Source: Malacoraja senta (lineage: Eukaryota). Taken from it: a stretch of 64,000 nucleotides of DNA. The notes beneath the pieces were generated by a model. It worked only from the letters and a program-made list of their open reading frames with translations. It searched no databases and had not been told where the DNA came from. The stretch spans positions 11,534,001-11,598,000 of the forward strand of contig CM075991.1 of assembly GCA_038087875.1 (NCBI GenBank). Direction: 5' to 3'. Each line of letters begins with the position of its first letter. The stretch's first letter is position 1. The translations under genes and the position numbers were made by a program. This document shows, one piece after another, positions 1-56,082 of this stretch.

Positions 1-498
1 TGTAACTCTGACTCTGTGGCAGAGAATGCCACATGTCTCTGCCCGTTCCCCATAATACAGGAAGATTATTAGATTTAAAGTGGAGGTCTATACTGGAGAG
101 TCCCTCTGAAGATTGCTGCCTAGGTGGTCCGATGGAAGCTACGGGGAGATCTAACGATTCCGCTATCCATTTGCAGCCTCTTCTATTTTTACCATCGAGA
201 CACAAATGTTCCTCTGGCCACGGCATTTTTTCCATGCCCCGCGCTGAATCGAGCTTCTTGTGTCCACAATACATAAATATTCTCGAATTTCACTCGGTTG
301 TTTCACCTGGAGAGTTCGGGCCGAACCCGAGGTCTCCAGAGGTCTGAGCGACTGTGAATTCCACGGTGACTGTGTCGGAAGGAATTGCTGCCAGATAGAC
401 GCAAAATGCTGCATTAACTCAGCGGGACCGCCAGCATCTCTGGAGAGAAGGAATGGGTGACATTTGGGGTCGAGACGTCGGAGTCTGAAGAAGGGTCT

Positions 499-855
499 CG
501 ACCCGAAACGTCACCCATTCCTTCTCTCCAGAGATGCCGCCTGTCCCGCTGAGTTACTGCAGCATTTTATGTCTATCTGCGACTGCAGTGAATGGCTGGA
601 CCACGGGCCTGGTGACTCATTTTGTTTTTTAAATGCGGACACATCAACCAATGTTTCTTTCTGACTGAGTAGAGGGGGCTAACGGTGGCCTGGAGAACGA
701 TCGAGCATAAATCAACAACCCTCAGAGATCATTCCCTGCATGCCTACTCTGGGTATTATCAGTATTTTGGGTTCTTCAAACCAAGTGTGAAACCCAAAGT
801 ATCTGAATCAGAAGATTCTCTTCTGATTCAGATACTGTCCTCTCAGAGTGCGATG
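499..855 (+). repeat. Local duplication, copy 1 (copy 2 at 2657-3010)
   Basis: The hammerhead tail plus ~270 bp of otherwise unique flank (CTGCAGTGAATGGCTGGACCACGGGCCTGGTGACTCA...) recurs about 2.16 kb downstream. Confidence 0.85.
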
Positions 856-940
856 TGTATAAAGGATAATAGACAATGGACAATAGACAATAGACAATAG
901 GTGCAGGAGTAGGCCATTCGGCCCTTCGAGCCAGCACCAT

Positions 941-1306
941 ATAAGATTGTTAAGGGTTTGGACACGCTAGAGGCAGGAAACATGTTCCCGATGTTGGGGG
1001 AGTCCAGAACCAGGGGCCACAGTTTAAGAATAAGGAGTAAGCCATTTAGAACGGAGACGAGGAAACACTTTTTCTCACAGAGAGTGGTGAGTCTGTGGAA
1101 TTCTCTGCCTCAGAGGGCGGTGGAGGCCGGTTCTCTGGATGCTTTCAAGAGAGAGCTAGATAGGGCTCTTAAAGATAGCGGAGTCAGGGGATGTGGGGAG
1201 AAGGCAGGAACGGGGTACTGATTGGGGATGATCAGCCATGATCACATTGAATGGCGGTGCTGGCTCGAAGGTGCCTACTCCTGCACCTGTTGTCTATTGT
1301 CTATTG
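941..1306 (+). mobile_element. CR1 LINE 3' fragment
   Basis: GLDTLEAGNMFP..TRGHSLRI..FFSQRVVSLWNSLP..FKRELD, with a (TCTATTG)n tail. Confidence 0.9.
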
Positions 1307-1937
1307 TTTTACGCAACGTTTCAACTTCTCAACATAGAGTTGGTTCGTGGCCCCGACCACGGATGAACAAAGGAGGAGGACTGAACGTTATTGCCTTCCA
1401 CCACAGTGAAGAATGTTGATTCCACTGTGGTGGACGTTGATGTGGTATTCTCTTGTGTATTGTGCTCTTTGTGGCTGCATGGTGTCATATTCCACTCTTA
1501 CCTCAATTGGTGCGTGTGGCAATAAATGTGAACTTGAACTTGGGTTAAATGGCAAAAAGGACACAATTACAAAGTGGATTGGGTTTGAGTGCAGTAACAC
1601 CTGCCTTTGAGATGAAGGAGGAAGCTACTAAATGCAAGGAAACGCTGCAAACTGCAGATGCTGAAATTGGGAGGTAAAGTCAAAGTGCTGGAGAAACTCA
1701 GCGGGTCAGGCAGCAACTGTACAGAGAATGGACAGACATTCTTTTGGGCTGGAAGGAACTGCAGATGCTGATTCGGAATCCGAAGGTAGACACAGAAAGC
1801 TCAGCGGGTCAGGCAGCATCTCTGGAGAAAAGGAACAGGTGACTTTTCGGGACGAGACCCTTCTTCAGACTGAGAGTCAGGGGAGAAGGGAAACGACCGA
1901 TACAGACCGTGAATGTAGAGAGATGGTGAACAAGTGA

Positions 1938-2345
1938 ATGGGTCTGAAGAAGGGTTTCGGCCCGAAACGTTGCCTATTTCCTCCAGTCTGAAGAAGGGTT
2001 TCGGCCCGAAACGTTACCTATTTCCTTCAGTCTGAAGAAGGGTTTCGGCCCAAAAACGTTGCCTATTTCCTTCAGTCTGAAGAAGGGTTTCGGCCCGAAA
2101 CGTTGCCTATTTCCTCCAGTCTGAAGAAGGGTTTCGGCCCGAAACGTTACCTATTTCCTTCAGTCTGAAGAAGGGTTCGGCCCAAAAACGTTGCCTATTT
2201 CCTTCAGTCTGAAGAAGGGTTTCGGCCTGAAACGTTGCCTATTTCCTTCAGTCTGAAGAAGGGTTTCGGCCTGAAACGTTGCCTATTTCCTTCGCTCCAT
2301 AGATGCTGCCGCACCCGCTGAGTTTCTCCAGCACTTTTGTCTACC
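1938..2345 (+). repeat. Tandem array of eight 44-bp hammerhead-core units plus the element tail
   Basis: CTGAAGA at 1944, 1988, 2032, 2077, 2121, 2165, 2209 and 2253. Unit is approximately CAGTCTGAAGAAGGGTTTCGGCCCGAAACGTTGCCTATTTCCTT. Confidence 0.9.
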
Positions 2346-4927
2346 TTTAAATGGGTCAGGACCCTTCTCCAGACTAATGCTGTCAGAGGGAGAAAGCTGG
2401 TTTCCTCCACAGCTGCTGCCTGAGTCCAAATACAGTATCACCACTGTATGCAGGATATAATACACAGTGGTCTGCTCCACTGTAATATCTCAAGGTATGT
2501 CTACTTTGAAGAAATTCTCCTCTTCTCTCCGACAAAAGTTCAGCACCATCCTCCCTGTCTTTGATTTGTCCTTTTACAAACCTTCCATTCATCCGCTTTT
2601 TGTACATTTTCATATCTCCTTACTTCCCTCTCCCCAGACTCTGGGTCAAGAAGGATCTCGACCCGAAAGGTCACCCATTCCTTCACTCCAGAGATGCCGC
2701 CTGTCCCGCTGAGTTACTCCAGCAATTTGTGTCTATCTGTGGCTGCAGTGAATGGCTGGACCACGGGCCTGGTGACTCACTTTGTTTTTTAAATGCGGAC
2801 ACATCAACCAATTTTTCTTTCTGATTGAGTAGAGGGGGCTAACGGTGGCCTGGAGAACGATCGAGCTCAAATCAAAGGCCCTTCAACAACCCTGTGAGAT
2901 CATTCCCTGTTTGCCTACTCTGGGTATTAGCAGTGTTTTGGGTTCTACAAACCAAGTGTTTAATTCCCCCTTCTGATTCAGCTACTGTCCTCTCAGAGTG
3001 CCCTGTGTATGAAGGAACTGCAGATGCTGGTTTAAACCGAAGATAGACACAAAAAGCTGTTCTTTGGTCTGTCCGAAACTTGCCGATATCCCAGCAGAGC
3101 GAGATGCCCGACGGGGGATTGTTGCCGACCGGCCCGCTCCAGACGGCAGGAGTACTTGCTGAGGGACGCACTGAAGCTCGGTGCAGCCAACGCCAAGGCT
3201 CTGTGGGGGAGGGCCACAGTCTAGGGACCTTTCGCTGCTGGACATGGGGGAGGGGCAAAGTCCCGGGGGGGGGGGCACCCCTCGAATAAGGGAAGGGACA
3301 TCACCCCAGGTGCATCGTTCACCGAGCTGTCTGAAGTTTCTGCACCACATTAAGGGTGGTGAATCTGTGGAATTCTTTGCCACAGTGGGCTGTGGAGGCC
3401 AGGTCAGTGGATATATTTAAGGCAGAGATAGATAGATTCTTGATTAGTACGGGTGTCAGGGGTTATGGGGAGAAGGCACGAGAATGGGGTTAGGAGAGAG
3501 AGATAGATCAGCCGCGATTGAATGGCAGAGTAGACTTGATGGGCTGAATGGAATAATTCTACTCCTGTCACTTGTGACCTTATGAAACCTCACACTGAGA
3601 GATAGATGTCCATGGCATGGGGCAGGTTAGCGGCTGTGATGAGACTGGGAAAGGGATGGTGGCTCCCTCTAGAATTGCCCATAAACGAGGGGGGGGGGGG
3701 GAGGGAGGGGGGGGGTTCAGACCTGGATTGAGAGGTGATTAAGCTCTGCCTGCCAGATTCAAGCAGGATTTGTGCCTCAAAGCCCCGGCTCAAATTAGCT
3801 GAAGCCAATCCTAAAAGTGGTGACTGAGGAGGGGAATACCGTGTCTTTCCAGCAGGGAATCTCGCTTTTGGAAAATGCACAGCCGTTCCTGCTAATTTTA
3901 ACCATTTGCCCAGAGATAAGAGCTCGCTTGGTGTTGGAGACTGAAACTATTTATATCAGGACTAAAATATGATTCCCATGATAAGTTGACCATGCGGGTT
4001 AGCACTGAGGTTAGGGGAGAAGGGAGGGGGGCGAGGGGGTGCAGTTCTCCAGAAACTGTTCAGAGACCAGGTTAACCCTTTGCACACAATCATAGAAAAT
4101 AGGTGCAGGAGTAGGCCATTCGGCCCTTCGAGCCATTCAATATGATCATGGCTGATCATCCAAAATCAGTACCCCGTTCCTGCTTTTCGCTCATATCCCT
4201 TGATTCCGTTCGGCCTAAGAGCTAATTCTAAACTCAATCAAAAGTCAACTCAGTCAAAATCATCTTAAGCTAACATTTTCCCCCAGGACTTTATTCCTGT
4301 GGAGCAAGTCACCCCAGCATTGAACCCATGAGAACATCCTCTCCAATCTACCCTCTTGCCTTTGCGAGTGCTTCCCTCCAGCACATAGAGCTGATTTTTT
4401 AATGAGAACACATCAAAACTCAGGGCACAGGCAAAGGCCATTCGTCCCATCAAATCCCTGCTTGTCAAAACAGGACAGATGCCGTTTACCGCCTCTTGGT
4501 CATTGGCCTTGATGGGTCAGTTCATCATCCGCGTACAGTCCAAATGTGACGTGTCGACCCGAAACGTCACCTATTCCTTCGCTCCATAGATGCTGCCTCA
4601 CCCGCTGAGTTTCTCCAGCATTTTTGTCTAACGTCCATACACCAAGGTGTCTTTATCGACTGCATTTCTCTATATTGCACCTACCCAATTTTAGTTTTAG
4701 TTTAAAGTCGTTCAAAATCATCCTGAAGGTTACCAAAAAAAGGACTTTTCACAACTTCAAGATATCAGAAAGACAATGGGTAACTCAGAACTTTATGGAA
4801 TTGTCAAGTGGGAAACACAACATCCACATTGTACACGGCAACGTCCGACAAATATTAGTGTTAGCAGTTGAGATAACGTTGGTGCAGGATGCTGTAGAGA
4901 CCTCCCCTGACTCTCCCCCTTCATAAC

Positions 4928-5553
4928 AAGAGGATTTCAGTATAGGAGTAAAGAGGTTCTTCTGCAGTAGCATAGGGCTCTGGTGAGACCACATCTGGAG
5001 TATTGCGTACAGTTTTGGTCTCCTAATTTGAGGAAGGACATCCTTGTGATTGAGGCAGTGCAGCGTAGGTTCACGAGATTGATCCCTGGGATGGCGGGAC
5101 TGTCATATGAGGAAAGATTGAAAAGACTGGGCTTGTATTCACTGGAGTTTAGAAGGATGAGGGGATATCTTATAGAGACATATAAAATTATAAAAGGACT
5201 GGACAAGCTAGATGCAGGAAAAATGTTCCCAATGCTGGGCGAGTCCAGAACCAGGGGGCCACAGTCTTAGAATAAAGGGGAGGCCATTTAAGACAGAGGT
5301 GAGAAAAACCGTTTTCACCCAGAGAGTTGTGAATTTATGGAATTCCCTGCCACAGAGGGCAGTGGAGGCCAAGTCATTGGATGGATTTAAGAGAGAGTTA
5401 GATAGAGCTCTAGGGGCTAGTGGAATCAAGGGAGAAGGCAGGCACGGGTTATTGATTGGGGACGATCAGCCATGATCACAATGAATGGCGGTGCAGGCTC
5501 GAATGGCCGAATGGCCTCCTCCTGCACCTATTTTCTATGTTTCTATGTTTCTA
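4928..5553 (+). mobile_element. CR1 LINE 3' fragment
   Basis: [39 protein letters not shown], with a (TTCTATGT)n tail. Confidence 0.92.
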
Positions 5554-5756
5554 ATATCCGCTATGGGTCATTTATAGCCAACAGGGTCTTTGACTGTTTA
5601 GCAGTCTCTCAGTGTTGTCATGAGGTGCAACTCTGTCTCAGCGCTGAACCTCCAGCACTACAGCACACACTAGCATTGTTCCATCAACACGCAGTTCTCC
5701 GTCAACACTGCACTGGAGACCCACACTAGTCTTTGTGGCCAGCTCTATATTTGGGC

Positions 5757-6053
5757 AGTCACGGTGGCGCAGCGGCAGAGTTGCTGCCTCACAACGCTTG
5801 CAGCGCCGGAGACCCGGGTTCGATCCCGACTACGGGTGCTGTCTGTACGGAGTTTGTACCTTCTCCCCGTGGGTTTTCTCCGAGATCTACGGTTTCCGCC
5901 CACACTCCAAAGACGTACTGGTTTGTAGGTAAATTGGCTTGGTAGATGTAAAAATTGTCCCTAGTGGGTGTAGGATAGTGTTAATGTGCGGGGATGGCTG
6001 GTCGGTACGGACCCGACGGGCCGAAGGGCGCTGTATCTCTAAACTAAACTAAA
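5757..6053 (+). mobile_element. tRNA-derived SINE (V-SINE/HE1-like)
   Basis: A box TGGCGCAGCGG at 5765-5775, B box GGTTCGATCCC at 5817-5827, central GGAGTTTG..TTCTCCCCGTG..GGTTTCC..CCACACTCCAAAGACG domain, CR1-like GGGCCGAAGGG tail and (CTAAA)n. Confidence 0.85.
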
Positions 6054-6504
6054 ATATGGAATAGTACTTGAACCCACAACTTTCCGAATCAGAGGGAAGA
6101 CTGAGAACCACTAAGTTAAGGTTGAATCACACATTTCTCTCCGATTCCGCTAAGACCTTCACCTCATCTTCATTGACCATATCCAACATCAATCTCTGTT
6201 TGCTATCAGAATAATATCCCCAGCCGTGACTATTGGGGGGACGTCACAAATAACGTTCCTTAGGGTGAGGCGAAAGTAAAATAAATAGATTTGAAGAATG
6301 GGAGAAGGCTGCCTCCCATTGGAAAATGTGAGGTATAGGGTGATACAGTGTGGAAACAGGCCCTTCGGCCCAACTTGCCCACACCGGCCAACAATGTCCC
6401 AGCTACACTAGTCCCACCTGCCTGCGCTTGATCCATATCCCTCCAAACCCGTCCTATCCATGTACCTGTCTAACTGTTTCTCAAACGATGGGATAGTCTG
6501 AGGA

Positions 6505-7037
6505 AATCTGAGGAAGGACATTATTGCCATAGAGGGAGTGCAGAGAAGGTTCACCAGACTGATTCCTGGGATGTCAGGACTGTCTTATGAAGAAAGACTG
6601 GATAGACTTGGTTTATACTCTCTAGAATTTAGGAGATTGAGGGGGGATCTTATAGAAACTTACAAAATTCTTAAGGGGTTGGACAGGCTAGATGCAGGAA
6701 GATTGCTCCCGATGTTGGGGAAGTCCAGGACAAGGGGTCACAGCTTAAGGATAAGGGGGAAATCCTTTAAAACTGAGAAGAACTTTTTTCACACAGAGAG
6801 TGGTGAATCTCTGGAACTCTCTGCCACAGAGGGTAGTCGAGGCCAGTTCATTGGCTATATTTAAGAGCGAGTTAGATGTGGCCCTTGTGGCTAAAGGGAT
6901 TAGAGGGTATGGAGAGAAGGCAGGTACAGGATACTGAGTTGGATGATCAGCCATGATCATATTGAATGGCGGTGCAGGCTCGAAGGGCCGAATGGCCTAC
7001 TCCTGCACCTAATTTCTATGTTTCTATGTTTCTATGT
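6505..7037 (+). mobile_element. CR1 LINE 3' fragment, nested in an opposite-strand CR1 tail (~6340-7060)
   Basis: VQRRFTRLIPGMSGLSYEERL.., with an octamer tail. Confidence 0.9.
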
Positions 7038-9155
7038 CCCAGCCTCAACTGCCTCTCTAATAGTTTCACCATGGCACCTTATACCATTCGATATGATCTT
7101 CCTATGTTACAACTTGTAACTTGACTGATATATCCCGTGCCTCCTAACCATCTCATCCTTTGGTTCATCCTGTACTTCAAGGATCCCACTGTTCCTCTCT
7201 GCTTCTCAGAATTCCACCATTTATCATGTATTCCCTCCACAAATGGTGGGTGGTTGGAACAAGCTGCCAGAGGAGGTAGTTGAGGTAGACACAAAAAGCT
7301 GGAGTAACTCAACAGGTCAGATAGCATCTCTAGAGAAGATGTTCTGGTCAAGACCCTTCCAGTCTGAAGAAGGTTCTCGACCCAAAACGTGACCTATTCC
7401 TTTTTCTCTGGAGGTGCTGTCTGACCTGCTGAGTTACTCCAGCTTTTTGTGTCTATCTTCGTTATAAACCAGTATCTGTAATTTCATACTACACAAGGTG
7501 AAGCCATACTTCACGGTACAATGCATATTTCCGATCACCACGCTACAGGAAGGATGTGTTAGCAGCAGAGATGGCTTACATGGAAGTTATCAATGATGGA
7601 GTATCGCAGGTATGAGAGATTAAAAAGGCTGGTGTTGTTAGTTCTCCTCTTAGATGCTTCTGCTCCAGATGAAACAACTCCAGCCTTTTTAATCTCCCAT
7701 AACTAATATTCTCCAGCATTAACATATGAGACTCACTTGAGTTGAACTAAGCGGAGAGACTCATAACTATCAACAAAGATTTCATATGTGGACAGAGGGT
7801 TAGTGAGGCCCGAAGTTCCAAATACCAGCAAAAACTACCATCTATCAACTACCAACTCTCAGCAGGTAAATACCAGAGAGCGGTGATCACACACACACTC
7901 GTCACATTTGGAGGCATGGTTTTTGGACAACGTCCTTGCTTTCTCCCACCTTCCCCTCCCCTTCCGAGCTCTCCCTCAGCCCACTGTCCCCGCCTCTTCC
8001 TTTCTTTCTCCCCCACCCTTCCCCGACATCAGTCTGAAGAAGGGTCTTGACCCGAAACGTCGCCTATTCCCTCTCTCCATAGACGTTGCCTCACCCGCTG
8101 AGTTTCTCCAGCATTTTTGTCTACCATCGATTTTTCCAGCATCTGCAGTTCTTTCTTCAACGTTTGGTGTATGGAAGTTACCTGACATTTGCAACAGTGA
8201 CCACAACAGTGCCACATCCGGGAACTCCTACACAAGCTGAAAGGTTTCACTGGCTGAATATCATGTCATGGGCTACGCAACTGCAGGTTCTGTGGTAACA
8301 CAAATAAATCTTCCACTTTGTACATTTGCCACCAATGCCACCCAGAGAGAGAGAGAGAACATCGAGATCTTTGCCTCTCTTCCTAGGGGGCATTTCCATT
8401 CTTGCTTTTTAAGAAGGCAGGAACGGTGTACTGATTGGGGATGATCAGCCATGATCACAATGAATGGCAGTGCTGGCTCGAATGGCCAAATGGCCTACTC
8501 CTGCACCTATTGTCTATTGTCTATTCTCTCAAGAGATGCTACCTGTCCCACTGAGTTACTCCAGCTTTTTGTGTCTATCAACATGCAACCTTAGAATGGC
8601 TTTACCTTCACAGGAGTCATTGATGTCCACAGATTACAGAAAATGATACAGGTATACATTGTTGGGTTATATATCTACATATAGATATATATATATATGG
8701 ATAGGTGCACTCGAATAGATGGTTGATGGCAAGGTTGAGATATTGGGAGAGTATGTTCTATAGGCAGGAAATCTGTAGATCATTTCTCTGTTATAAGGAC
8801 GTAACAGAAATAGAGACTGGACCATGTGATAAATAGCCAAATAGATATCGAGTGATGATAGATTAATGAACAGGTAAATGCACAGAAAGACAGGCATGTA
8901 GTTGGAGGCAAGGGGGGATATTAGACTGATAGACAACTGAGGTTAATACTGGATGTGATCAATGAAGCTGAATAGAGAAATTCATATCTTTCATTCATTT
9001 GTTCTATAACTCTCGACATCACCGTCTATATCTCAGTCTGAAGAAGGGACTCCACCCGAAATATCACCTATTCCTTTCTTCCAGAAATGCTGTCTGACTC
9101 GCTGAGTTACTCCAGCTTTTTATGTCTATCTTAAGAGAAATTAATTGGTGCATAA

Positions 9156-9510: not shown

Positions 9511-10289
9511 TAAAAGAATGGACAACAAATATGTAGCGTGAAGAGTGGAAAATAGAAGATAGACAGAAAGCTGGAGTAACTCAGCGGGACAGGCAGCATC
9601 TCTGGAGAGAAGGAATGGGTGACGTTTTGGGTCGAGACCCTTCTTCAGACGGCGCCTATTTCCTTCGCTGTCTGAAGAAGGGTTTCGGCCCGAAACGTTG
9701 CCTATTTCCTTCGCTCCATAGATGCTGCTGCACCTGCTGAGTTTCTCCAGCATTTTTGTCTACCTCCAGTTTTTGTTCATCTTTACAACTTCCCTCCTCA
9801 GCTGAAGTAGCTTCCCTAGTGATGTCTCTGACTAAACTAAAGGCCATTACTTTAAACCGTGAGTACCAGGAAAAAAACATTTATAATTCATTTTCATTTA
9901 TAATGTGCCTTTCGCAATCTTAAGCTGTCCCAGAATGGTTTACAAAGTCCATACCATTCTCAAAATGCAGCCAGTGTTCTAACAGAGAAAGAACGTGCCA
10001 GTCAATTTGCATAAGGCCAGATCCAACAAACATTTGTGTGATAATGATCAGTAATCTGCTCTCGTGATGTGGATTGGGGGATAAATATCGGCTTGGACAC
10101 TAGAGTATTCCCTACTCCTAGATTGGTTTAGTTTAGTTTCGAGATACAGATGTGTATGTGTTCGGAATGTGGGTGTGTCTGTGTCGACTTATCACTGATT
10201 AAAATTCAAAAAAATCTAAATACCTTGAATTTCAAACCGACCATCTTCAACTGATGACGTTGCAATGGATCGACTAGCAGGGGGAGGGC

Positions 10290-10876: not shown

Positions 10877-12643
10877 GTATATTAAAGCCCACAGCTAGCA
10901 ATGACCTGTTTCGTTTATCATCGTGACTTTTTTTTGCACATCTTTCATTCATTTGTTCCACATCTCTCCACATCACCGTCTATATCTCTCGTAGTTTCAC
11001 CTTGGAGCATTTGGGCCGGTGAGATATCTAGATGGAGGGGTAGCGTTCAAAGCAGCCAGGTTTAAATTTCTAAATACCAGGGCTGGAGAGAATTCTGCAG
11101 AATCATAGAGTTATTCAGCACGGAAACAGGCCCCTTGGCTCAGCTCCTCCATGCTGACCAAATAGTGACCAGCTCCATCCTGAGCCCGTCACTATTTGCT
11201 TGCCTTTGGCACCTATCCCTCTAACTAGGTCATAAGGTCGTAATAATTCCTGTTCCCACTTACGCAATTTATTTTGGCGACTTGCCGGCATCTGTCATAG
11301 TTGTCATCTGGCAGGTTGCCGAACATGTTCAACATGTTGAAATTCCAGCGGCGACCAGCAAATGGTACGACTCTTTGGGCGACTACTCACGACCGTACGG
11401 GCTTCACCCCTTGACAGTTCCACCCTCCAGTCTCCAACCCCCTTCAGTCTCAGTAACATCCTTGTGAACCTGCTCTTCACACTCTCTCGCTTGTCGCATC
11501 CTTCCTGGCGACAACAACTACAGTATACATAATATTCCAAGGACTCTCATCAGATCTAGGGCGTCGGATTGTGAAAGGGTCTCGACTCGAAACGTCACCC
11601 ATTATGCTGGAGTAGATCAGCGGGAGAGGCAGCATCTCTGGAGAGAAGGAATGGGTGGTGTTTCGGGTCCAGGCCCTTCTTCAGAGACGTCACCCGTTCC
11701 TTCTCTCCAGAGATGCTGCCTGTCCCGCTGAGTTACTCCAGCATTTTGTGTCTATCTTCAATATTCCAGGTGCGGTTTCGCCAAAGTCTTGTACAACTGC
11801 GGTGTGGAGTCCCAACTCTTGTACTCAATGCCCCGTTTGATGTAAGCAAGTATGCCACACACATTCTTCACCACTGATAAGACACAAAAAGCTGGAGTAA
11901 CTCAGCGGGACAGCCAGCATCTCTGGAGAGAAGGAATGGGTGACGTTTCGGGTCGAGACCCTTCTTTGGCTTAAACCAGCGTCTGCAGTACCTTATTCAG
12001 CACCGTGTCTACCTGTGAGCGAGTTTCAGGGAACTCTATACCTGTACCCCTAGATAGACACGAAAAGCTGGAGTACCTCAGCGGGTCAGGCAGTATCTCT
12101 GGAGATGATGAATATGAGATATTTTGGGTCGACACCACTCTTCGAACCTTTAAGAAGGGTCTCGATCTGAAACATCACCGTGGAACATCTTATTCACATG
12201 GGCTACAGAAGTTCAACGAGTAAAATTTTGACCCACCGCAGAACCAGAGCCAAAACAAGCCGAACATTTACCGGAAAATAACTTAAGCACATGGAAAAGG
12301 CACAGGAAAGCCCGGAGTGTGTTTCTTTTGAAACTGTTAATAACTCCACAGACTTCCACCGTAAATTCAGTAAGAAGTAATAATTTACGACTCCATCTTA
12401 GTCCTCTATCTTCCTTGAATCCATCCACTCACAACGATGACCATAATGAATACTATTCAGTCCCTCCTTATCTTTTTAACTTTCATCTACTTATGGAATC
12501 TCTTAGGATCATCCTTTAACTGATCGGCCAAACTTATCTCTTGTTGTCTTTTCACCCTCTGATTTCCTTCTTGTGTCCTCCTTCATACTTCTGCAGGGGT
12601 TTGCTTGATCCCAGCTGCCTCTCCCTAACATGTAGCCTTGATA

Positions 12644-13738
12644 GAAGGTACACAAAAATGCTGGAGAAACTCAGCGGGTGCAGCAGCATCTATGGAGCGA
12701 AGGAAATAGGCAACGTTTCGGGCCGAATCCCTTCCGGGTTTCGGCCCGAAATGTTGCCTATTTCCTTCAGGGTTTCGGGCCGAAACGTTGCCTATTTCCT
12801 TTTTTTTTTTTTTTATTTTTTTTTTATTTTTTTTTTAATTTTTTTTTTTTATTTTATTTTTTAGAAGTACGGTAGATTACAGTAATGTACAACACGTATA
12901 TATTAATACATTTTTTGTACCGCTTCACTTTTTTAAACTTTAAGAAAGAAAAAGAAAGAAGTAAGAAAAGTGAAGAAAGTGCGCAAAGGTTGTGAAGTGC
13001 AAAAGAGTGTTGGGAAAAGAAAGCCCCTTAGAAAAGAGGTTAGAGAAGGAAGTAAAGTTAGAAAATAGACCCTAGAAAAAAAAAGAGAAAGAAAGAAGGA
13101 ACAATCGCTCTATTATAACTCTTATACCATACTTCATAGAGAAGGAACTACCAACCAAGTCTGTTTTTATTTTACCTCCCATTACCAGGTCCAGATACCT
13201 TTTATTTATTTATTTGTTTTTCTAAATTACTATTGCACCTCATGCTTGTAATAGGTCCAAAAACGTAGACCACGTCTTTTGAAATTGATCTACTTTGCCT
13301 ACTAGGAGGAATCTCATCTCTTCCAGATGTAATGTTTCCAACATATTTGATGTCCACATTTTTATTGTTGGTGTGGGCGCATTTTTCCAGAATTTAAGTA
13401 TAAGCTTTTTTCCCATTATTAGCCCATAATTGAGTAAATTCTTCTGATACACGTTTAATTCAGGAATACCTTCCGATATTCCAAAAATAATCCATTCTGG
13501 TTTTGGTACCAGTTTTATTTTGATTAATTTTGAAAAAATATCAAATATTTCAAACCAGAATTTTTGGATTTTTGTACAAAAAACAAAAGAATGTGCTATG
13601 GTAGCTTCTTGACATATACATTTATCACAGATAACGTTGCCTATTTCCTTCGCTCCATAGATGCTGCTGCACCCGCCGAGTTTCTCCAGCATTTTTGTGT
13701 ACCTTCGATTTTCCAGCATCTGCAGTTCCTTCTTTAAC
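12644..13738. mobile_element. Palindromic Penelope-derived element with 17-bp TSD, interrupted by an L1 insertion
   Basis: AACATGTAGCCTTGATA at 12627-12643 and 13739-13755 flanks the two arms. Confidence 0.8.
12802..13632 (-). mobile_element. 5'-truncated L1-clade LINE (ORF2 C-terminus, 3' UTR, poly-A)
   Basis: CDKC...H...C knuckle followed by KFWFEIF...LIMGKKLILKFWK...W. Poly-A appears as the T-run at 12802-12862. 18-bp TSD AACGTTGCCTATTTCCTT at 12784-12801 and 13633-13650. Confidence 0.85.
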
Positions 13739-20277: not shown

Positions 20278-20615
20278 GGTAGACAAAAATGCTGGAGAAA
20301 CTCAGCGGGTGCAGCAGCATCTATGGAGCGAAGGAAATAGGCAACGTTTCGGGCCGAAACCCGGAAGGGTTTCGGCCCGAAACGTTGCCTATTTCCTCCA
20401 GTCTGAAGAAGGGATTCGGCCCGAAACGTTGCCTATTTCCTCCAGTCTGAAGAAGGGTTTCGGCCCGAAACGTTGCCTATTTCCTCCAGTCTGAAGAAGG
20501 GTTTCGGCCCGAAACGTTGCCTATTTCCTTCGCTCCATAGATGCTGCTGCACCCGCTGAGTTTCTCCAGCATTTTTGTCTACCTTCGATTTTCCAGCATC
20601 TGCAGTTCCTTCTTA
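20278..20615. mobile_element. Palindromic Penelope-derived non-autonomous element with three tandem hammerhead-core units
   Basis: Inverted arms, central junction GAAACCCGGAAGGGTTTC, and CTGAAGA units at 20403, 20447 and 20491. Confidence 0.8.
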
Positions 20616-20880
20616 AACTCCAGAGATGCTGCCTGTCCCGCTGAGTTACTCCAGCTTTTTGTGTCTATCTTCGGTTTAAACCATCTTCGGAGCCCCCCCC
20701 CCCGACCACAGATGAACAACAGAGGAGGATGACTGAACTTTGGTGCCTTCCCTCACAGTGGGAAACTTTGATTCCGCTGTGTGGGGTTGTCTATGTTAAA
20801 GACTATCGTGTTCTGTGCTCTTATTTATTCGTATGGCTGTATGGTGACCACAAATTTCACTGTACTAATTGGTAGATGTG

Positions 20881-21732: not shown

Positions 21733-22545
21733 TAACTCAGCAGGACAGGCAGCATCTCTGGAGAAAAGGAATAGGTGCCGTTTCGGGTCGAGACCCTTTC
21801 TTCAGACGAGCACCACTGCCTCTCTCTATTCCTCTCTAAGTTGCCCATGCTGTGTGAGTGGGACTTTAACTAAATATTGTAAATAGTTGTGTTAATTCTA
21901 GTTTCCAAGGGCAGGAGGATTTTCTAAACGGAGGACACGGATCGAAGACAAAAACCTGAAGAAGCAGAGAAAAGCTAGGATTTTCTTTTTGTAGTAATCG
22001 GGAATGTGGAAATAGATTTTACATTGGAGAGGTGTTGACAAGAAGTTTGGAGTCCTCTGGCAGAGAGAGAGGATAGGATTCAGTAGAAACTATTTCAAGA
22101 AGGATCAGTCTGAAGAAGGGGTTCGGCCCGAAACGTTGCCTATTTCCTTCGCTCCATAAATGCTGCCTCACCCGCTGAGTTTCTCCAGCACTTTTGTCCA
22201 CCTTCGATTTTCCAGCATCTGCAGTTCCTTCTTAAACACATTGTTCAAGACATGGTTGGCTGAAACCTCCGCCTTGCATTCTATGAATGACCGCGATCAC
22301 TACAGAGAAGGCATGGAATCAACCACCCATGTGATTTGACTTTCCTGCAACTGAGCAGTGGTGTGTGTTGAATGTCACCCGAACTACTATCTGCCTCTCT
22401 GGTGAAAACGCACACACCTCCAGATTCAGGGACAGTTTCTTCCCAGCTGTTATCAGGCAACGGAATCATCCTACCACATCCAGAGAGCAGTGCTGAACTA
22501 CTATCTACCGCATTGGTGACCCTCGGACTATCCTTGATTGGACTT

Positions 22546-24835: not shown

Positions 24836-25636
24836 GCTGCCCGTGGCTGGACGTCTCCATCCAGGTCACACTGTCAATACACAACACAGTTGCTAATTCA
24901 CAAATAGTGCTCAAAGCACAGCCACAATTGCCCTTCAGCTGATCACTGCCAGACTGTGTGTACTCACCATTATTATGCAGACCTCCTGGTGTAGGGCATA
25001 CAAAACATTTATGACAAGGATCATTCATTTTCTTCTTATTATCAGCAATATGAACTCACATCAAATTTTATCAAAGAGGTGAGAGTGTTGAAAAACAATT
25101 GCTGGCTAACCACACAATTAAGAGTAATTGGATTAAACTTTGTCTTCCAACCCTAAGCAAAGCAGCTAAACGATTAAAAAAACACCTTTTCATACATATG
25201 AGGTGGAGGGGAGATCCTTTGACCAGCTGGCAAAGGGTTTGATGAGGAAAATTCCAATCAACATAGATCCAGGTTTCCTCTCCAAGGGCAAAAATGATGG
25301 TGGGATTGCCACTAATTTGTAGCCCTTCTCTCTTCTCCTGAGTGAGTGTGGTGTACACTAAACACTCACGCATCTCCCCGCTGCCTTCAGGTAGAAGGTA
25401 CAGGAGCCTGAAATCTGCAACATCCAGGGGTCAGGAATAGCTGCTTCCCCACAGCCATCAGGCTATTAAACTCAACTCAAACAAAACTCTGAACATTAAT
25501 ATCCCATTGCACTTTATATGTTATTTATGTGTGCGTATATATATATATTCAATGGTATATGGTCACATTGATCTGTGAATGTATTTATCTCTACTATACT
25601 CTGTTGTGCTGAAGCAAAGCAAGAATCATTGTCCTA

Positions 25637-25926
25637 GGTACACAAAAGTGCTGGAGAAACTCAGCGGGTGCAGCAGCATCTATGGAGCGAAGGAAATAGG
25701 CAACGTTTCGGGCCGAAACCCTGAAGGAAATAGGCAATGTTTCGGGACGAAACCCGGAAGGGTTTCGGGCCGAAACGTTGCCTATTTCCTTCGCTCCATA
25801 GATGCTGCTGCACCCGCTGAGTTTCTCCAGCAGGTACACAAAAATGCTGGAGAAACTCAGCGGGTGCAGCAGCATCTATGGAGCGAAGGAAACAGGCAAC
25901 ATTTCGGGCCGAAACCCTTCTTCAGA
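25637..25926. mobile_element. Composite Penelope-derived hammerhead element inserted in a LINE 3' UTR
   Basis: Palindromic arms plus a further partial arm, flanked by TCATTGTCCTA at 25626-25636 and 25951-25961. Confidence 0.75.
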
Positions 25927-27857: not shown

Positions 27858-27994
27858 AGACCCTTCTTCCTATGGACTAGTGGAAGGAGGCTGAATATGG
27901 ACTAGAGTGCGGCCCAAAGAGAATGTCTCCTCATTGTATGTTCAATATTATTCTTTTCCCACTCAATTTAAGACTGATCTGTGCTTGTGTTTAT

Positions 27995-28455
27995 GAAGGA
28001 ACTGCAGATGCTGGAAAATCGAAGGTAGACAAAAAGTGCTGGAGAAACTCAGCGGGTGCAGCAGCATCTATGGAGCGAAGGAAATAGGCAACGTTTCGGG
28101 CAGAAACCCTTCTTCAGACTGAAGGAAATAGGCAACGTTTCGGCCCGAAACCCTTCTTCAGACTGGAGGAAATAGGCAACGTTTCGGGCCGAAACCCTTC
28201 TTCAGACTGAAGGAAATAGGCAACGTTTCGGCCCGAAACCCTTCTTCAGACTGGAGGAAATAGGCAACGTTTCGGCCCGAAACCCTTCTTCAGACTGAAG
28301 GAAATAGGCAACGTTTCGGGCCGAAACCCGGAAGGGTTTCGCCCCGAAACGTTGCCTATTTCCTTCGCTCCATAGATGCTGCTGCACCCTCTGAGTTTCT
28401 CCAGCACTTTTGTCTACCTGCGATTTTCCAGCATCTGCAGTTCCTTCTTAAACAC
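27995..28455. mobile_element. Palindromic Penelope-derived element with five minus-strand tandem hammerhead-core units
   Basis: Inverted arms AAGGAACTGCAGATGCTGGAAAATCG...CGATTTTCCAGCATCTGCAGTTCCTT, TCTTCAG repeated at 44-bp spacing from 28111, same central junction. Confidence 0.8.
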
Positions 28456-29028
28456 AAGGATCCACGCCTGTTTCTGGCACATAGTCTTGGAAAGGTGGCG
28501 GGATTCCTAAGACAGCGGGATCCCCCTCTGCTCCTCTTCCTTCCCCAACAGTGCAGGAGGCATCTCTGGTGCATGATGACGACGACCGAGAGGATTGCCC
28601 CGTGAGCTTGGACCCTGCGGACCGAACAAGAATAGGGTGAAGTCATTGTTAAATCACGCTCCCCCCCACCCCCACCCCTCACTGAATTTTCAAAGATTCT
28701 GCAGAGGAGACAGGAGGGAGAGGAAAGAGCAACTGGGTCTCAGATAATCTAGAGCAGTCTGCAACTGACTTTGAACTGTTGACAGGAATGCACAGCTGCC
28801 GATGGACTTCTTCATTGTCCCTGTGTGGAGCCGCCCCCATGACCGAGAAAGGGCCGTTGGGTCTTTGGCCGTTCCAGCAGGATATTGTCAGTGGAGAGGT
28901 TGCAAGCCCAGACGCCCCCCGGTGAACGTGAAGAGATTCCGTCGTGCATTTTACTACCTCAAGCAGCCCCAAAGTTCTCAGTAATTTGTGAGGTGCCTTC
29001 TGGAGTACAGTCATAGTTGTGTGCAGCT

Positions 29029-31317: not shown

Positions 31318-31517
31318 NNNNNNNNNNNNNNNNNNNNNNNNNNNNNNNNNNNNNNNNNNNNNNNNNNNNNNNNNNNNNNNNNNNNNNNNNNNNNNNNNNN
31401 NNNNNNNNNNNNNNNNNNNNNNNNNNNNNNNNNNNNNNNNNNNNNNNNNNNNNNNNNNNNNNNNNNNNNNNNNNNNNNNNNNNNNNNNNNNNNNNNNNNN
31501 NNNNNNNNNNNNNNNNN
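31318..31517. other. Assembly gap of 200 N
   Basis: Seen directly. The round length suggests a placeholder of unknown true size. Confidence 0.98.
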
Positions 31518-32451: not shown

Positions 32452-32872
32452 CAAAGGTCAGTGTGGGAATGGGAGGGGGAGTTAAAGTGTTTAGCAACCA
32501 GGAGATCACATGGGCTTAGGCAGACTGAGTGGAGGTGTTTGGCGAAACGATCTCCGAGCCTGTGCTCGGTCTCGCAGACGTACAGGTGTTCACACCTGGA
32601 ACAGTGGCTACAGTAACTGTGTTTGGAGGAGGTGCAAGTGAACCTCTGCCTCACCTAAAAGGACAGTCGGGGTCCTTGGACGGAGTCCAGGTGGGCGGTA
32701 AAGGTACAGGTGTTGCATCTCCTGCGGCTGCAGGGGAAGGTACCTGGGGAGGGGGTGGTTTGGGTGGGAAGGGACGAGTTGACCAGGGAGCGGTCTCAGC
32801 GGAAAGAGGAAAGGGGTTGGAGATGGGAAGATGTGGCTAGTGGTGGGATCCCGTTGGAGGTGGCGAAACTGC
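32452..32872 (-). mobile_element. Penelope-like retroelement fragment, GIY-YIG endonuclease domain (degenerate)
   Basis: ORF 32433-32654 reads FTCTSSKHSYCSHCSRCEHLYVCETEHRLGDRFAKHLHSV...VAKHFNSPSHSHTDL, matching the PLE pattern FTC..(IY)C..C..C..(YIG)ET.R....R..EH...HF. Confidence 0.85.
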
Positions 32873-35003: not shown

Positions 35004-36538
35004 AAACGGTGCGGGAAGGAACTGCAGATGCTGGTTTAAACCGAAGATGGACACAAATTGCTGGAGTAACTCAGCGGGACAGGCAGCATCTCTGGAGAGA
35101 AGGAATGGGCGACGTTTTTGGTCGAAGCTGAAGCATAAACCCCCCTCTTTCTTCACGGATGCCGCCTGCCCTGCTGGGTGTTTCTGGCATTTTCTCTCTT
35201 TATTCAAGTTTTCCAGCACCTGTAGAAGGGTCCCGACCCGAATTGTCACTCATCCATGTTGTCCAGAGGTGCTGCCTGACCCGCTGAGTTACTCCAGCAC
35301 TTTGTGTCTTTCTCTGTGTTCATGCAGCCCGGACTGAGAGCAGTTTCAGTTTCAGTTTCAGTTTTCGTTTATTATCGCATGTACCGAGCTACAGTGAAAA
35401 GCTTTTATTGCGTGCTATCCAGTCAGCAGAAAGACAGTACATCAGTTTGCATTCAGGCCGTCCACAGTGTACAGATACGTGATCAGGGAATGTGTTGGAA
35501 GGAACTGCAGATGCTGGTTTACACCAAAGATAGACACAAATGCTGGAGTAACTCAGCGGGACAGGTGATGTCACTGGATAGAAGGAATGGCTATTCCTTC
35601 TCTCCAGAGATGCTGCCTGTCCCGCTGAGTTACTCCAGCATTTCGTGTCCATATTCATGATAAGGGAATAACGTTTAGCGCAAGGTAAAGAGGACGAGGT
35701 GGGAACCATGTTCTGGAGCTCACTAGGCCGCAGTGACCTCTGTAACCCATGGCAACGGCCGGGGCCTACGGTTCAGGCTTGCCAGCCTCCTTCCTGCAGA
35801 GCCGGGCCTAGCCTGTCCCCTAGCCTGCCTTGTGTAATTTGACTAAAACTGAGGTTGAAGCCAGGCTGCATGACGCCACATATCAACATTTTATTGCCTG
35901 ACAGTTTACAGCGCAGTGAATTTGGCAAAGCTTGTAGGCAGCAAACCTTTGTTTCATTCCTCATTGAAGTGCGGGGCCTGTGACGGGTCTGGCCCTGCAG
36001 CAGCCTGAGATGTTATTAAGAAGTTGCAGGATATTGGTTAAGGCGACTGGGTCATCGATCTTGCTTTGATGTTAGCGAGGCAGCGAATATGAGGGGTTGT
36101 CAGAGGCGGGAGGGGAGGAGGCTGTGTGTGATGGTGGGGGGGGAGTAGAGGGCTGTGTGGGGGGGGGAGGGGAGGGGTGGGGGCTGTGTGTGGTGGTGGG
36201 GAGTAGTGGGGGCTGTGTGTGTGGTGTGGGCTGTGTGCGGGTTGGTGGGAGCGGTGGGGGCTGTGTGTGGTAGAGGAGAGGGAGGGGTGTGGTCCTTGTG
36301 GGGTGGGGAAAGGGGAGAGGTAAGGGCTGTGTTCAGGTGGGGGGGGGGGGATGTCGGGGAGGTTGTGGAGGGGAGGGGAGGAGAGTTATGGCAGTGCTGA
36401 CAGTGAGGTATTCCTTTAGTTTATTGTCAGCCCAGAGCTGGTGTCACAGACAGGCCTATAAATCACGGGCAACACAGCCCAAACACCTCCTTGGCTGACA
36501 GGCCTACATAATCAGTCTGTACTGCAGTCTGTAGGAAC

Positions 36539-37345
36539 CCTGCCTCTCCCCCTGCCCTCTCCCCCTGCCCTCTCCCCCTGCCCTCTCCTCAACCCTCTCC
36601 CCCTGCCCTCTCCTCATCTCCCCCTGCCCTCTCCCCCTGCCCTCTCCCCCTTCCCTCTCCTCATCCCTCTCCCCCTGCCCTCTCCCCCTTCCCTCTCCTC
36701 ATCCCTCTCCCCTGCCCTCTCCCCCTGCCCTCTCCTCATCCCTCTCCCCCTGACCTCTCCCCCTGCCCTCTCCCCTGCTCTCTCCCCCTGCCCTCTCCCC
36801 CTGCACTCTCCTCATCCCTCTCCCACTCTCCTCATCCCTCTCCCCCTGCCCTCTCCCCCTGCCCTCTCCCCCTGCCCTCTCCTCATCCCTCTCCCCCTGC
36901 CCTCTCCCCCTGCACTCTCCTCATCCCTCTCCCCCTGCCCTTTCCCCCTGCCCTCTCCTCATCCCTGTCCCCTTCCCTCTCCCCCTGCCCTCTCCTCATC
37001 CCTCTCCCCCTGCACTCTCCTCATCCCTCTCCCCCTGCACTCTCCCCTGCCCTCTCCCCCTGCCCTCTCCCCCTGCCCTCTCCTCATCCATTTCCCCCTG
37101 CACTCTCCTCATCCCTCTCCCCCTGCCCTTTCCCCCTGCCCTCTCCTCATCCCTGTCCCCTTCCCTCTCCCCCTGCCCTCTCCTCATCCCTCTCCCCCTG
37201 CACTCTCCTCATCCCTCTCCCCCTGCCCTCTCCCCCTGCCCTCTCCCCCGCCCTCTCCTCATCCATCTCCCCCTGCACTCTCCTCATCCCTCTCCCCCTG
37301 CCCTCTCCCCCTGCCCTCTCCTCATCCCTCTCCCCTTCCCCCCCC
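36539..37345. repeat. Pyrimidine-rich minisatellite (CCCTCTCCCCCTG / CCCTCTCCTCAT units)
   Basis: Seen directly. Confidence 0.95.
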
Positions 37346-39568: not shown

Positions 39569-39820
39569 AGGTAGACAAAAGTGCTGGGGAAACTCAGCGG
39601 GTGCAGCAGCATCTATGGAGCGAAGGAAATAGGCAACGTTTCGGGCCGAAACCCTTCTTCAGACTGGAGGAAATAGGCAACGTTTCGGGTCGAAACCCGG
39701 AAGGGTTTCGGCCCGAAACGTTGCCTATTTCCTTCGCTCCATAGATGCTGCTGCACCCGCTGAGTTTCTCCAGCACTTTTGTCTACCTTCGATTTTCCAG
39801 CATCTGCAGTTCCTTCCCAC
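39569..39820. mobile_element. Palindromic Penelope-derived hammerhead element
   Basis: Inverted arms, one extra 44-bp unit, central GAAACCCGGAAGGGTTTC junction. Confidence 0.75.
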
Positions 39821-47235: not shown

Positions 47236-47606
47236 GGGCTCCCAGCACCATTTGCAGTTCCCTTTCTCAGTAAGGCTCGCTCTGCACACTTAGGCCGAGG
47301 CCATTTTCCAGCGGGCCGGCAGGTGACCCCGCGATTCAGAGGCCCGGTGATCTGCCTCATGTATCCCCTCCACATGCCAAGAAGCCTCAGATCCTGCACA
47401 TTCTGCAGAAAAACCCTTTCTGCAGTGGTTTCATTAAAACCAACTCCCTTAGTCCCCGCAGCCAGAGGGCTGGGCCTGGAATGGCCGTGACATTGCGGCT
47501 CCACTCTGCTGTCATTAGTCTTGACAAATCATTTACTGAAGAAGCCAGCATAATTGAATTCATTTACTGCCTGCCTATGTATTCATGGGAACATTACTTT
47601 TAATAA

Positions 47607-47999
47607 GATAGACACAAAATGCTGGAGTAACTCAGAGCGGGACAGGCAGCATCTCCAGAGAGAAGGAATGGGCGACGTTTCGGGTTGAGTCTGAAGAAGG
47701 GTCTCGACCCAAAATAGCACCCATTCATTCTCTCCAGAGATGCTGCCTGTCCCGCTAGTTACTCCAGCACTTTATGTCTTTTCTTGTAAACTGGCATCTG
47801 CAGTTCCTCCTGTCTACACGATGAAACAGTGTGTATACGAGAGTGAGACAGACACAGAGAGAGAGACAAGTCTGAAGAAGGGTCTCGACCTGAAACGTCA
47901 CCCATTCTTTTTCTCCAGAGATGCTGCCAGTCCGGCTGAGTTACTCCAGCATTTTGTGTCTATTTTAGGTTTAAGCCAGCACCTGCAGTTCCTTCCTAC
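47607..47999. mobile_element. Penelope-derived hammerhead element (inverted plus tandem arms) with 16-bp TSD
   Basis: ACATTACTTTTAATAA at 47591-47606 and 48000-48015. Two CTGAAGAAGGGTCTCGACC cores inside. Confidence 0.8.
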
Positions 48000-51760: not shown

Positions 51761-52156
51761 GGCCTACACAGGCCTACACAGACCTATACAGGCATACACA
51801 GGCCTACACAGACCGACACAGGCCTACACAGACCGACACAGGCCTACACAGGCATACACAGGCCTATACAGACCGACACAGGCCTATACAGGCCTACACA
51901 GACCTATACAGGCATACACAGGCCTACACAGACCGACACAGGCCTACACAGACCGACACAGGCCTATACAGGCCTACACAGGCCTATTCAGGCCTACACA
52001 GGCCTACATAGGCTGACACCGGCCTATACAGGCCTACACAGGCTTACACAGGCCTATACAGGCCGACACAGGCCTACACAGGCTGACACAGGCCTACACA
52101 GGCCCATACAGGCCTACACAGGCCTACACAGACCTATACAGGCCTATACAGGCCTG
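51761..52156. repeat. 10-bp minisatellite GGCCTACACA with variants
   Basis: About 39 units in exact 10-bp register. Confidence 0.95.
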
Positions 52157-54697: not shown

Positions 54698-54861
54698 AGG
54701 AATGGGTGACGTTTCGGGTTGAGACGTCTGAAAAAGGTTCTCGACCCGAAACGCCCCCCGTTCCTCCTCTCCAGAGATGCTCCCTGAGTTAGTCCAGCTT
54801 TTTGTGTCTATCAAAGTCATTACAAGCCACCACCGTCTCTCTCCGCGGAACTTAAGTTCAG

Positions 54862-55441
54862 CGAGACCAACGATTGTTTCGCTGAACACCTCCGCTCAGT
54901 TCGCCTAGGCCGTCATGATCTCCTGGCTGCCAAAGACTTTAACTCCCCTCCCATTCCCACACTGACCTTTCTGTCCTGGGCCTCCTCCACTGTCAGAGTG
55001 AGGCCCAGCGCCAAATTGGAGGAACAGCACCTCATATGTCACTTGGGCAGCTTCCACCCCAGCGGTATGAACATTGACTTCTCTAACTTTAAGTAGCCCT
55101 TGCTTTCCCTCTCTCTCCATCCCTCTCCCATCCTAGTTCTCCGACCAGTCTGACTGTCCTGAATAAATTTATCGCGTTATGCCTCCTTGTCACCTTCCCG
55201 AGCTAACAATAATCTATTCTACATGTTCCTTAATCCTCATCCCCTTTGCTCTCTTATTTTCACACCTTACCCTTCCATATCTCTTGTTCCACTCTCCCCT
55301 GACGCTCAGTCTGAAGAAGGGTCTTGACCCGAAACGTCACCCATTCCTTGTCTCCTGAGATGCTGCCTGTCCCGCTGAGTTACTCCAGCATTTTGTGTCT
55401 ATCTTCGGTGTAAAGCAGCATCTGCAGTTCCTTCCTACACA
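54862..55441 (+). mobile_element. Penelope-like retroelement 3' end: degenerate GIY-YIG C-terminus, 3' UTR and terminal repeat with hammerhead core
   Basis: Translates with frameshifts to ...FAEHLRSVR...LSVLGLLHCQSEAQ...LEEQHLICHLGSFHPSGMNIDFSNFK*. This is followed by a pyrimidine-rich UTR, then CTGAAGAAGGGTCTTGACCCGAAACGTC at ~55311-55338, then the conserved tail ending TCTGCAGTTCCTTCCTACAC. Confidence 0.85.
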
Positions 55442-55570
55442 CTTAAGATCAAGTCAATTGGAACAAACCCACCTCGATCACTGACTTGTGTGGAAGATCT
55501 CTCTTACAGTATTCCCTCATCATGTATCTGTACACTGTGAATGGCTCGATTGTAATCGTGTATTGTCTTA

Positions 55571-55809: not shown

Positions 55810-55885
55810 TTGCCGCTGACTGGATAGCACGCAACAAAATCTTTTCACTGTACCTCGGTGCACGTGACAATAAGCTAAACTGAAA

Positions 55886-56082
55886 CCTTCGATGGTGGGG
55901 AGGTCAGTACTGTGATGGACCTTCGATGGTGGGGAGGTCTGTACTGTGATGGATCTTCGATGGTGGGGAGGTCAGTACTGTGATGGACCTTCGATGGTGG
56001 GGAGGTCAGTACTGTGATGGACCTTCGATGGTGGGGAGGTCAGTACTGTGATGGATCTTCGATGGTGGGGAGGGTCAGTACT
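55886..56082. repeat. 34-bp minisatellite, about 5.8 copies
   Basis: CCTTCGATGGTGGGGAGGTCAGTACTGTGATGGA starting at 55886, 55920, 55954, 55988, 56022 and 56056. Confidence 0.95.

Follow-up and report, generated by a model that had tools for sequence, protein, structure and literature searches.

Tandem hammerhead cores of 44-bp period in Malacoraja senta: probably a minisatellite derived from a Penelope-like terminal repeat

The hammerhead ribozymes found in the terminal repeats (pLTRs) of Penelope-like elements (PLEs) have been described as minimal motifs with an extra base after A9, a G10.1-C11.1 pair, and palindromic positions 15.2-16.2; in the same report, monomers did not cleave, and the cleavage of dimers and trimers was low (PMC4209133). 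A study of the anole element stated that its hammerhead cleaves only in the presence of the PLE protein, that uncut RNA is the main insertion substrate, and that the optional PLE tail matches two start sites of the reverse transcriptase (RT) (PMC11167929). Among PLE clades, Neptune and Nematis are marked by a CX2-5CxxC linker (PMC8557442). Vertebrate non-LTR retrozymes have been presented as tandem repeats that derive from pLTRs, contain hammerheads of the canonical or the minimal type, and have units of 51-972 bp, and in Xenopus, eight of the nine predicted retrozyme dimers tested were uncleaved (bioRxiv 10.64898/2026.07.22.740005). No description of the present 44-bp array was found in the literature searched; the supplementary tables of the latter study may list the family.

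The array analyzed here occupied positions 1944-2292 of a 64-kb stretch of DNA (referred to as the window, to which all family and array counts refer), and consisted of eight 44-45-bp units followed by a single tail (2293-2347), which is the usual tail of a dispersed repeat family (Table 1). The eight CTGAAGA boxes, one at the first base of each unit, were spaced by 44-45 bp, and TRF returned a period of 44, 8.0 copies, 94% matches, and a score of 623, far exceeding chance; this bore out the tandem array of eight hammerhead-like units with a 44-bp period given in the preliminary description. As RNA, an intact unit contained C3-A9, one extra A, a stem II of 4 bp (three G-C and one U-G) closed by UUCG, G12-A15.1, an ACGU palindrome, and a GUU triplet, and thus all three features that define minimal PLE hammerheads (PMC4209133). 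The complete set for a minimal type I hammerhead (boxes, base 9a, stem II with G10.1-C11.1, NUH, and palindromic stem III) was found in four of the eight units (1, 2, 4, and 5). The uniform reading originally given to the units was, therefore, valid for these four, and units 3, 6, 7, and 8 were altered: G12 was lost in units 3 and 6, as had been noted, and a C11.1-to-U change in units 7 and 8 had been overlooked.

Private changes were common to the unit pairs 2/5, 3/6, and 7/8. Since those of units 1-3 recurred in units 4-6, and unit 7 had the core change of unit 8, the array probably grew in part by duplication at the DNA level after the mutations had occurred. The near identity of units 4-6 to units 1-3, in a window with one N gap (31318-31517), may alternatively be taken to mean that the array is shorter and that some of the units were created by the assembly; this is extremely unlikely because unit 6 is one base short of unit 3 and the sister arrays (see below) have variant patterns of their own. 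An 8-bp direct repeat brackets the array and tail, and a common 8-mer was found in only 0.6% of random window pairs; array and tail are, therefore, apparently one insertion beside an older minus-strand copy.

Table 1. Coordinates of the array, its relatives, and the putative parent remnants in the window
Feature	Positions	Strand	Description
Older PLE-end copy, other subfamily	1751..1943	-	With partial upstream pyrimidine-rich region; adjoins array insertion
Left copy of 8-bp target-site duplication, AATGGGTC	1937..1944	+	Equals 5' strand of the accidental stem I of unit 1
Unit 1	1944..1987	+	Intact core; predicted cut 1971/1972; sole unit with long stem I
Unit 2	1988..2031	+	Intact core; stem I 2 bp; G to A at position 1.1 (as in unit 5)
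Unit 3	2032..2076	+	G12 to A and one extra A (as in unit 6)
Unit 4	2077..2120	+	Intact core; same as unit 1
Unit 5	2121..2164	+	Intact core; same as unit 2
Unit 6	2165..2208	+	Like unit 3, minus one more base in stem II/loop
Unit 7	2209..2252	+	C11.1 to U (as in unit 8)
Unit 8 and normal short tail of the family	2253..2347	+	C11.1 to U
Right copy of 8-bp target-site duplication, AATGGGTC	2350..2357	+	
Palindromic copy	12641..12801	.	34-bp duplication without CUGAAGA box (duplication 12730-12801)
Sister insertion	20278..20618	+	Inverted arm, partial unit, three 44-bp units, and long tail; 12-bp target-site duplication
Second palindromic copy	25636..25832	.	34-bp duplication without CUGAAGA box (duplication 25689-25761)
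Sister insertion	27986..28456	-	Inverted arm, partial unit, five 44-bp units, and long tail
Second PLE remnant	32453..32738	-	C-X4-C-X2-C linker and part of GIY-YIG domain
Sister insertion	39569..39816	-	Inverted arm, partial unit, one 44-bp-type junction, and tail
Parent PLE 3' remnant	54851..55445	+	GIY-YIG C-terminus with a frameshift (stop about 55097), then ~215 nt of pyrimidine-rich 3' region, hammerhead core at 55311, and tail

Unit and tail belonged to a dispersed family of 97 non-overlapping pieces (7,666 bp, 51 on the plus and 46 on the minus strand) with two main subfamilies. This single PLE terminal-repeat family made up 12% of the window, which is an extreme density of hammerhead-like motifs. 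Upstream of the family copy with a core at 55311, a frameshifted frame (54851-55098) was followed by approximately 215 nt rich in pyrimidines. The frame matched the C-terminus of a protein from the stingray Hypanus sabinus (46% identity, 79 amino acids, E 1e-15). The stingray protein gave a Pfam match to GIY-YIG (E 0.002, below the curated cut-off) and, by eye, possessed an N-terminal region resembling an RT as well as a Cys linker (C-X4-C-X2-C), a motif also present at 32738-32700 in a second PLE remnant. No match was obtained in a Pfam search with the window's own 81 residues from the 54851 remnant, and no RT remnant was recognized in a short-motif search of the window.

The 3' ends of the family fell into two clusters, +93-96 and +128-133 (20 of the 97 pieces in each; the reference ends at +133), and, when contigs and reads were aligned to a single family copy (22040-22290), loose read ends appeared behind 22194-22205 and 22238. 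The distance of about 35-40 nt between the clusters resembles the optional PLE tail (PMC11167929). A core located 3' of a C-terminal GIY-YIG remnant, a CX2-5CxxC linker, partial tandems, inverted 5' copies, and an optional 30-40-bp tail all agreed with the terminal repeats of EN+ Neptune-like PLEs. Based on the GIY-YIG remnant, the Cys linker, and the two 3'-end clusters, the unit corresponds to the initial 44 nt of that portion of a PLE terminal repeat which contains the hammerhead, i.e. the 44-bp unit is the start of the pLTR of a Neptune-like Penelope retroelement. A minimal type I core of the PLE type had been recognized previously, and the remnants now provide the PLE link within the window itself.

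Words of the family occurred in sequence runs of nine organisms (runs with small shares of family words were left out of the interpretation), and the exact 31-nt core had no matches in metagenome contigs. The terminal stretch of a Rhinoraja longicauda protein annotated as neuromedin-U receptor 1 matched the PLE endonuclease C-terminus, and this PLE-like end probably reflects either an exonised repeat or an error in the gene model. Other abundant repeats seen by eye in the window were putative 3' fragments of LINE-like elements, which carry short tandem tails, and a putative SINE-like copy of tRNA origin (868-1310, 4090-4240, 4915-5550, and 5756-6000). Long unrelated tandem arrays lay at 60572-63022, 36538-37340, 51761-52155, and 55885-56082 (periods of 10/19/29, 13, 10, and 34 bp).

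Three further 44-bp arrays were found at 20364, 28077, and 39569, with a partial unit and three, five, and one units, respectively, each joined to an inverted arm and ending in the tail; all four arrays in the window terminated in a PLE tail. Two junction spellings of the 44-bp unit were common to several loci, other junction points were seen in two family copies, and two palindromic copies contained a 34-bp duplication at the array junction without the CUGAAGA box. Among the matches listed for the alignment to 22040-22290, DNA contigs of two organisms contained go-back joints (22148-22151 to 22107-22118) with a depth of 139-993, the depth of the single-copy flank being about 28-30. These matches did not include the exact 44-bp joint. 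Contig depths added together were disregarded as a measure of copy number. Direct repeats at the nine insertions checked were clear at two, loose at one, and absent at six. Tandem formation is a habit across the family, and needs no intact core, since among the 17 complete-core units of the four arrays nine were intact and eight damaged (three of these mildly). The opposed 4-nt centres of the sister palindromes were considered as a sign of independent origins and rejected, because arm recombination can flip the centre.

Head-to-head palindromes of ~200-450 bp with a MITE-like appearance were located at 392-581, 9555-9773, 20278-20618, 27986-28456, 39569-39816, and 47605-47808; such copies yield spurious Rfam matches to miRNA precursors and could supply double-stranded RNA. 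At 28161-28293 (minus strand) and 25757, a GGC-for-GCC centre of the internal GTTTCG/CGAAAC palindrome represented a local inversion, and this variant, which breaks stem II, was copied into several units.

Compared with PLE pLTR hammerheads (Cervera & de la Pena 2014, PMC4209133), the units were similar in the CUGANGA and GAAA boxes, the unpaired base (A9/10.1), G10.1-C11.1, the palindromic 15.2-16.2 without a stem III loop, the terminal-repeat position behind GIY-YIG, and the predominance of dispersed single copies, and differed in helix II (4 bp versus 6-8 bp), in helix I (2 bp, as in the D. virilis variant, versus 4-5 bp in the S. mansoni motifs), and in the repetition of the core at a 44-bp period. 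The pLTR-related tandems, with one motif per unit, no coding sequence, and few units per locus, were shared with non-LTR retrozymes (Li, Clavereau, Pollet, bioRxiv 10.64898/2026.07.22.740005; Cervera & de la Pena 2020, PMC7229834). Unlike the latter, the array, which is known from its sequence alone, had no real stem I and kept the PLE tail, and its unit was 44 bp rather than 51-972 bp (bioRxiv 10.64898/2026.07.22.740005) or the about 170-400 nt of known circles (PMC7229834). Head-to-tail partial copies, the inverted 5' arm of the three sister insertions, a preference for two 3' ends separated by about 35-40 nt, and direct repeats at some insertions were in common with the partial tandems of PLEs (PMC8557442, PMC3846280, PMC11167929), from which the present copies differed in being cut to about 100-135 nt without an ORF. 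The array is, therefore, of a known kind, a Penelope pLTR tandem that is "retrozyme-like" by position only and slightly below the published minimum of 51 bp. With regard to two or more consecutive units with a complete hammerhead, units 1-2 and 4-5 were neighbours with intact cores, but a helix I was present in unit 1 only. As the evidence stands, the array cannot be classed as an active retrozyme.

An ultra-compact retrozyme, the transcripts of which would be cut to 44-nt monomers, circularised, and reverse-transcribed back by a rolling circle, is nevertheless conceivable from the tandem core-bearing units, which fit the positional definition of non-LTR retrozymes, from the presence of the 44-bp unit at four loci, and from the derivation of these retrozymes from pLTRs, known in one chondrichthyan genome (bioRxiv 10.64898/2026.07.22.740005). 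However, a 44-nt circle does not contain the normal tail carried by all four arrays, and spreading as pure unit repeats off a circular template was not seen in the window. Furthermore, core-less 34-bp duplications arise at the same junction, the duplication included damaged units, and known circles, with canonical type I hammerheads, measure about 170-400 nt (PMC7229834). We consider this origin to be highly improbable.

Stem I was 2 bp in all 16 array-internal cores, as had been estimated for the internal units, in 19 of the remaining 29 cores, and in each of the three copies that retain their native upstream sequence; since 2 bp is the native state of the family, the internal units are no worse than the parent in this respect. 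A helix I of at least 4 bp was reached only by unit 1 (8 bp) and one dispersed copy (4 bp). The stem I previously attributed to unit 1 is real on paper (eight contiguous pairs, including G-U), but the left target-site duplication provides its 5' strand; it is, therefore, an accident of insertion, and was rejected as an inherited trait. Recognition by hammerhead models, an earlier suggestion, was not obtained: no Rfam hammerhead family was found at E<=10 in 1-8000 or 1925-2040, and the only matches were to miRNA-like hairpins under gathering scores. This silence is expected of a core that lacks both stem I and stem III.

In the predicted free ensemble, CUUCAG at the junctions paired with the CUGAAG box and the stem II region paired with neighbouring units. 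Forcing the active site with an inter-unit stem III (cores 3 and 6 omitted, and only cores upstream of their cleavage strand) cost 13-17 kcal/mol for internal cores in a two-unit RNA and 18-23 kcal/mol in the whole array; the corresponding values for core 1 were 10 and 10-16 kcal/mol. Unit 1 alone was predicted to form the 8-bp stem I and stem II with P 0.84 (0.00-0.05 in six other copies), and its fold was no stabler than shuffles (z -0.45). Nearest-neighbour models under-rate hammerhead junctions. For this reason, and as no positive control was included, the energies rank the units without proving inactivity. Dimer cleavage of small PLE hammerheads has reportedly been obtained by Lunse et al. 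(RNA Biol), whose data on variants with a short stem I may be relevant to the activity of the present units.

Unit 1 may be the only competent one, its target-site stem I allowing its core, in a read-through transcript, to pair with the cleavage strand of any unit further downstream and thereby to shorten the array at its 3' end, as an accident of one locus. The predicted fold of the isolated unit and the advantage of core-1 folds over internal ones by 5-10 kcal/mol speak for this; however, within the whole array the active core-1 folds still lay above the ensemble by 10-16 kcal/mol, the fold of unit 1 alone was no stabler than shuffles, transcription of the locus has to be presumed, and one such junction among 29 is, by estimate, around chance level, making this explanation very improbable. 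The preliminary description had further proposed that the array could cut transcripts into ~44-nt monomers or circles. The 2-bp stem I, the box buried in the predicted folds, the damage in 8 of the 17 units, the core-less duplications, and the retained tails argue against this proposal; the array is probably catalytically inert, as judged from these models, and 44-nt circles from it are unlikely.

None of the 97 pieces started at the cut site (+28), with one each at +25, +26, and +27, and 47 started at -6 to -1 relative to the core. Similarity to the native upstream sequence was lost within 2-7 nt in 21 of the 29 non-array cores. Since piece starts were absent at the cut site and massed just before the core, the templates appear to have been mostly uncut, as in the anole element, for which a cut site without read ends was reported (PMC11167929). 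Examples of the 5' ends massed 2-7 nt before the core are 55300-55311, 8025-8034, and 1868-1880 (minus strand). The native TCAGT after the pyrimidine tract resembles both the consensus of initiator elements and that of 3' splice sites, and the massed ends may reflect a transcription start, a splice acceptor, or an RT stop. Since helix I is also where an intron terminates in D. virilis, a spliced exon might supply stem I. This was unsupported here, a donor-side match at the 55311 copy not being found by eye, and none of the six RNA loose ends among the matches listed agreed well with the AG|T boundary. In a polyA library from a related organism, 7,818 of 7,335,232 records fell on the family, with about equal directions and no pile-up of starts or ends; because these data come from another species, cover about 6% of the run, and are blind to 44-nt RNA, this result is weak evidence.

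Columns that split the subfamilies numbered 15 of 100 across the 97 pieces, and none of the 15 was among the 13 invariant hammerhead positions (P=0.10). Four subfamily differences lay within the motif, in loop 2, in stem II (U-G to U-A), in the triplet (GUU to GUC), and at the first pair of stem I (U-G to U-A), and all were compatible with a hammerhead. Subfamily changes that spare the core may be a weak hint of past selection in master elements. Single copies decay neutrally, G12 being A in 14 of 78, like other CpG sites. In a covariation set of 28 copies, which was biased by being picked for a near-complete core, 93.7% of the cells were paired, with three one-sided changes and no two-sided change, and 476 of 500 shuffles scored as high.

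These observations bear on slow or protein-assisted ribozymes, in which neighbouring intact cores would pair via ACGU with the help of a PLE protein or chaperone and cut some transcripts, as a leftover of the parent without a life cycle of its own. Nine of the 17 array cores were intact, native and internal stems I were alike, and the invariant positions lacked diagnostic columns; moreover, dimers and trimers of the Schistosoma minimal hammerhead were reported to be weakly active (PMC4209133), and the protein requirement of the anole PLE hammerhead means that protein help could rescue a poor fold (PMC11167929). On the other hand, the array junctions contribute the CUUCAG that pairs with the box, the covariation score was matched by shuffles in the absence of a two-sided compensatory change, no family 5' ends were found at the cut site, and the read pile-up was absent from the polyA data of the related organism. 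We regard these ribozymes as unlikely.

Our preferred explanation, which we consider to be likely, is that the opening 44 bases of the terminal repeat of an abundant PLE are present eight times head to tail in the array, which is predicted to be inert. The array likely arose as a by-product of copying, in the form of a single reverse-transcribed insertion with a few units, and was likely lengthened later at the DNA level; it is probably an ordinary transposon-derived minisatellite, not a factory of tiny circular RNAs. The PLE RT would prime in the tail and copy through the uncut ribozyme site, halt 2-7 nt upstream of the core, and then jump through a 2-nt microhomology (TC) to ~12 nt past the cut site, and this template jump would yield a miniature PLE partial tandem. 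The 44-bp junction may either recur or be copied from an array-bearing master RNA. Slippage or unequal exchange may subsequently have duplicated units 1-3 to give units 4-6 and unit 8 to give unit 7, in line with the pattern of private changes. Given the short stem I of 2 bp and the pairings that compete with it, internal cores are predicted to stay unfolded, and no 44-nt ladder would form.

A bolder possibility is that the array is the smallest natural self-processing repeat in animals, in which unit 1, or internal cores together with a Penelope protein, would cut read-through RNA into circularising 44-nt pieces. We find this quite improbable; if true, it would represent a retrozyme born from a pLTR by template jumping, and cleavage by the array would give a lower size limit for natural ribozyme repeats and show the origin of retrozymes. 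If inert, as is likely, the array is a small and clear case of PLE terminal repeats seeding minisatellites, and also a warning that pipelines overcall when they score hammerhead cores in tandem as "active retrozymes". The family, with loci of one, two, four, six, and eight units, core-less 34-bp variants, and one accidental full stem I, constitutes a test series that bears on what PLE hammerheads do.
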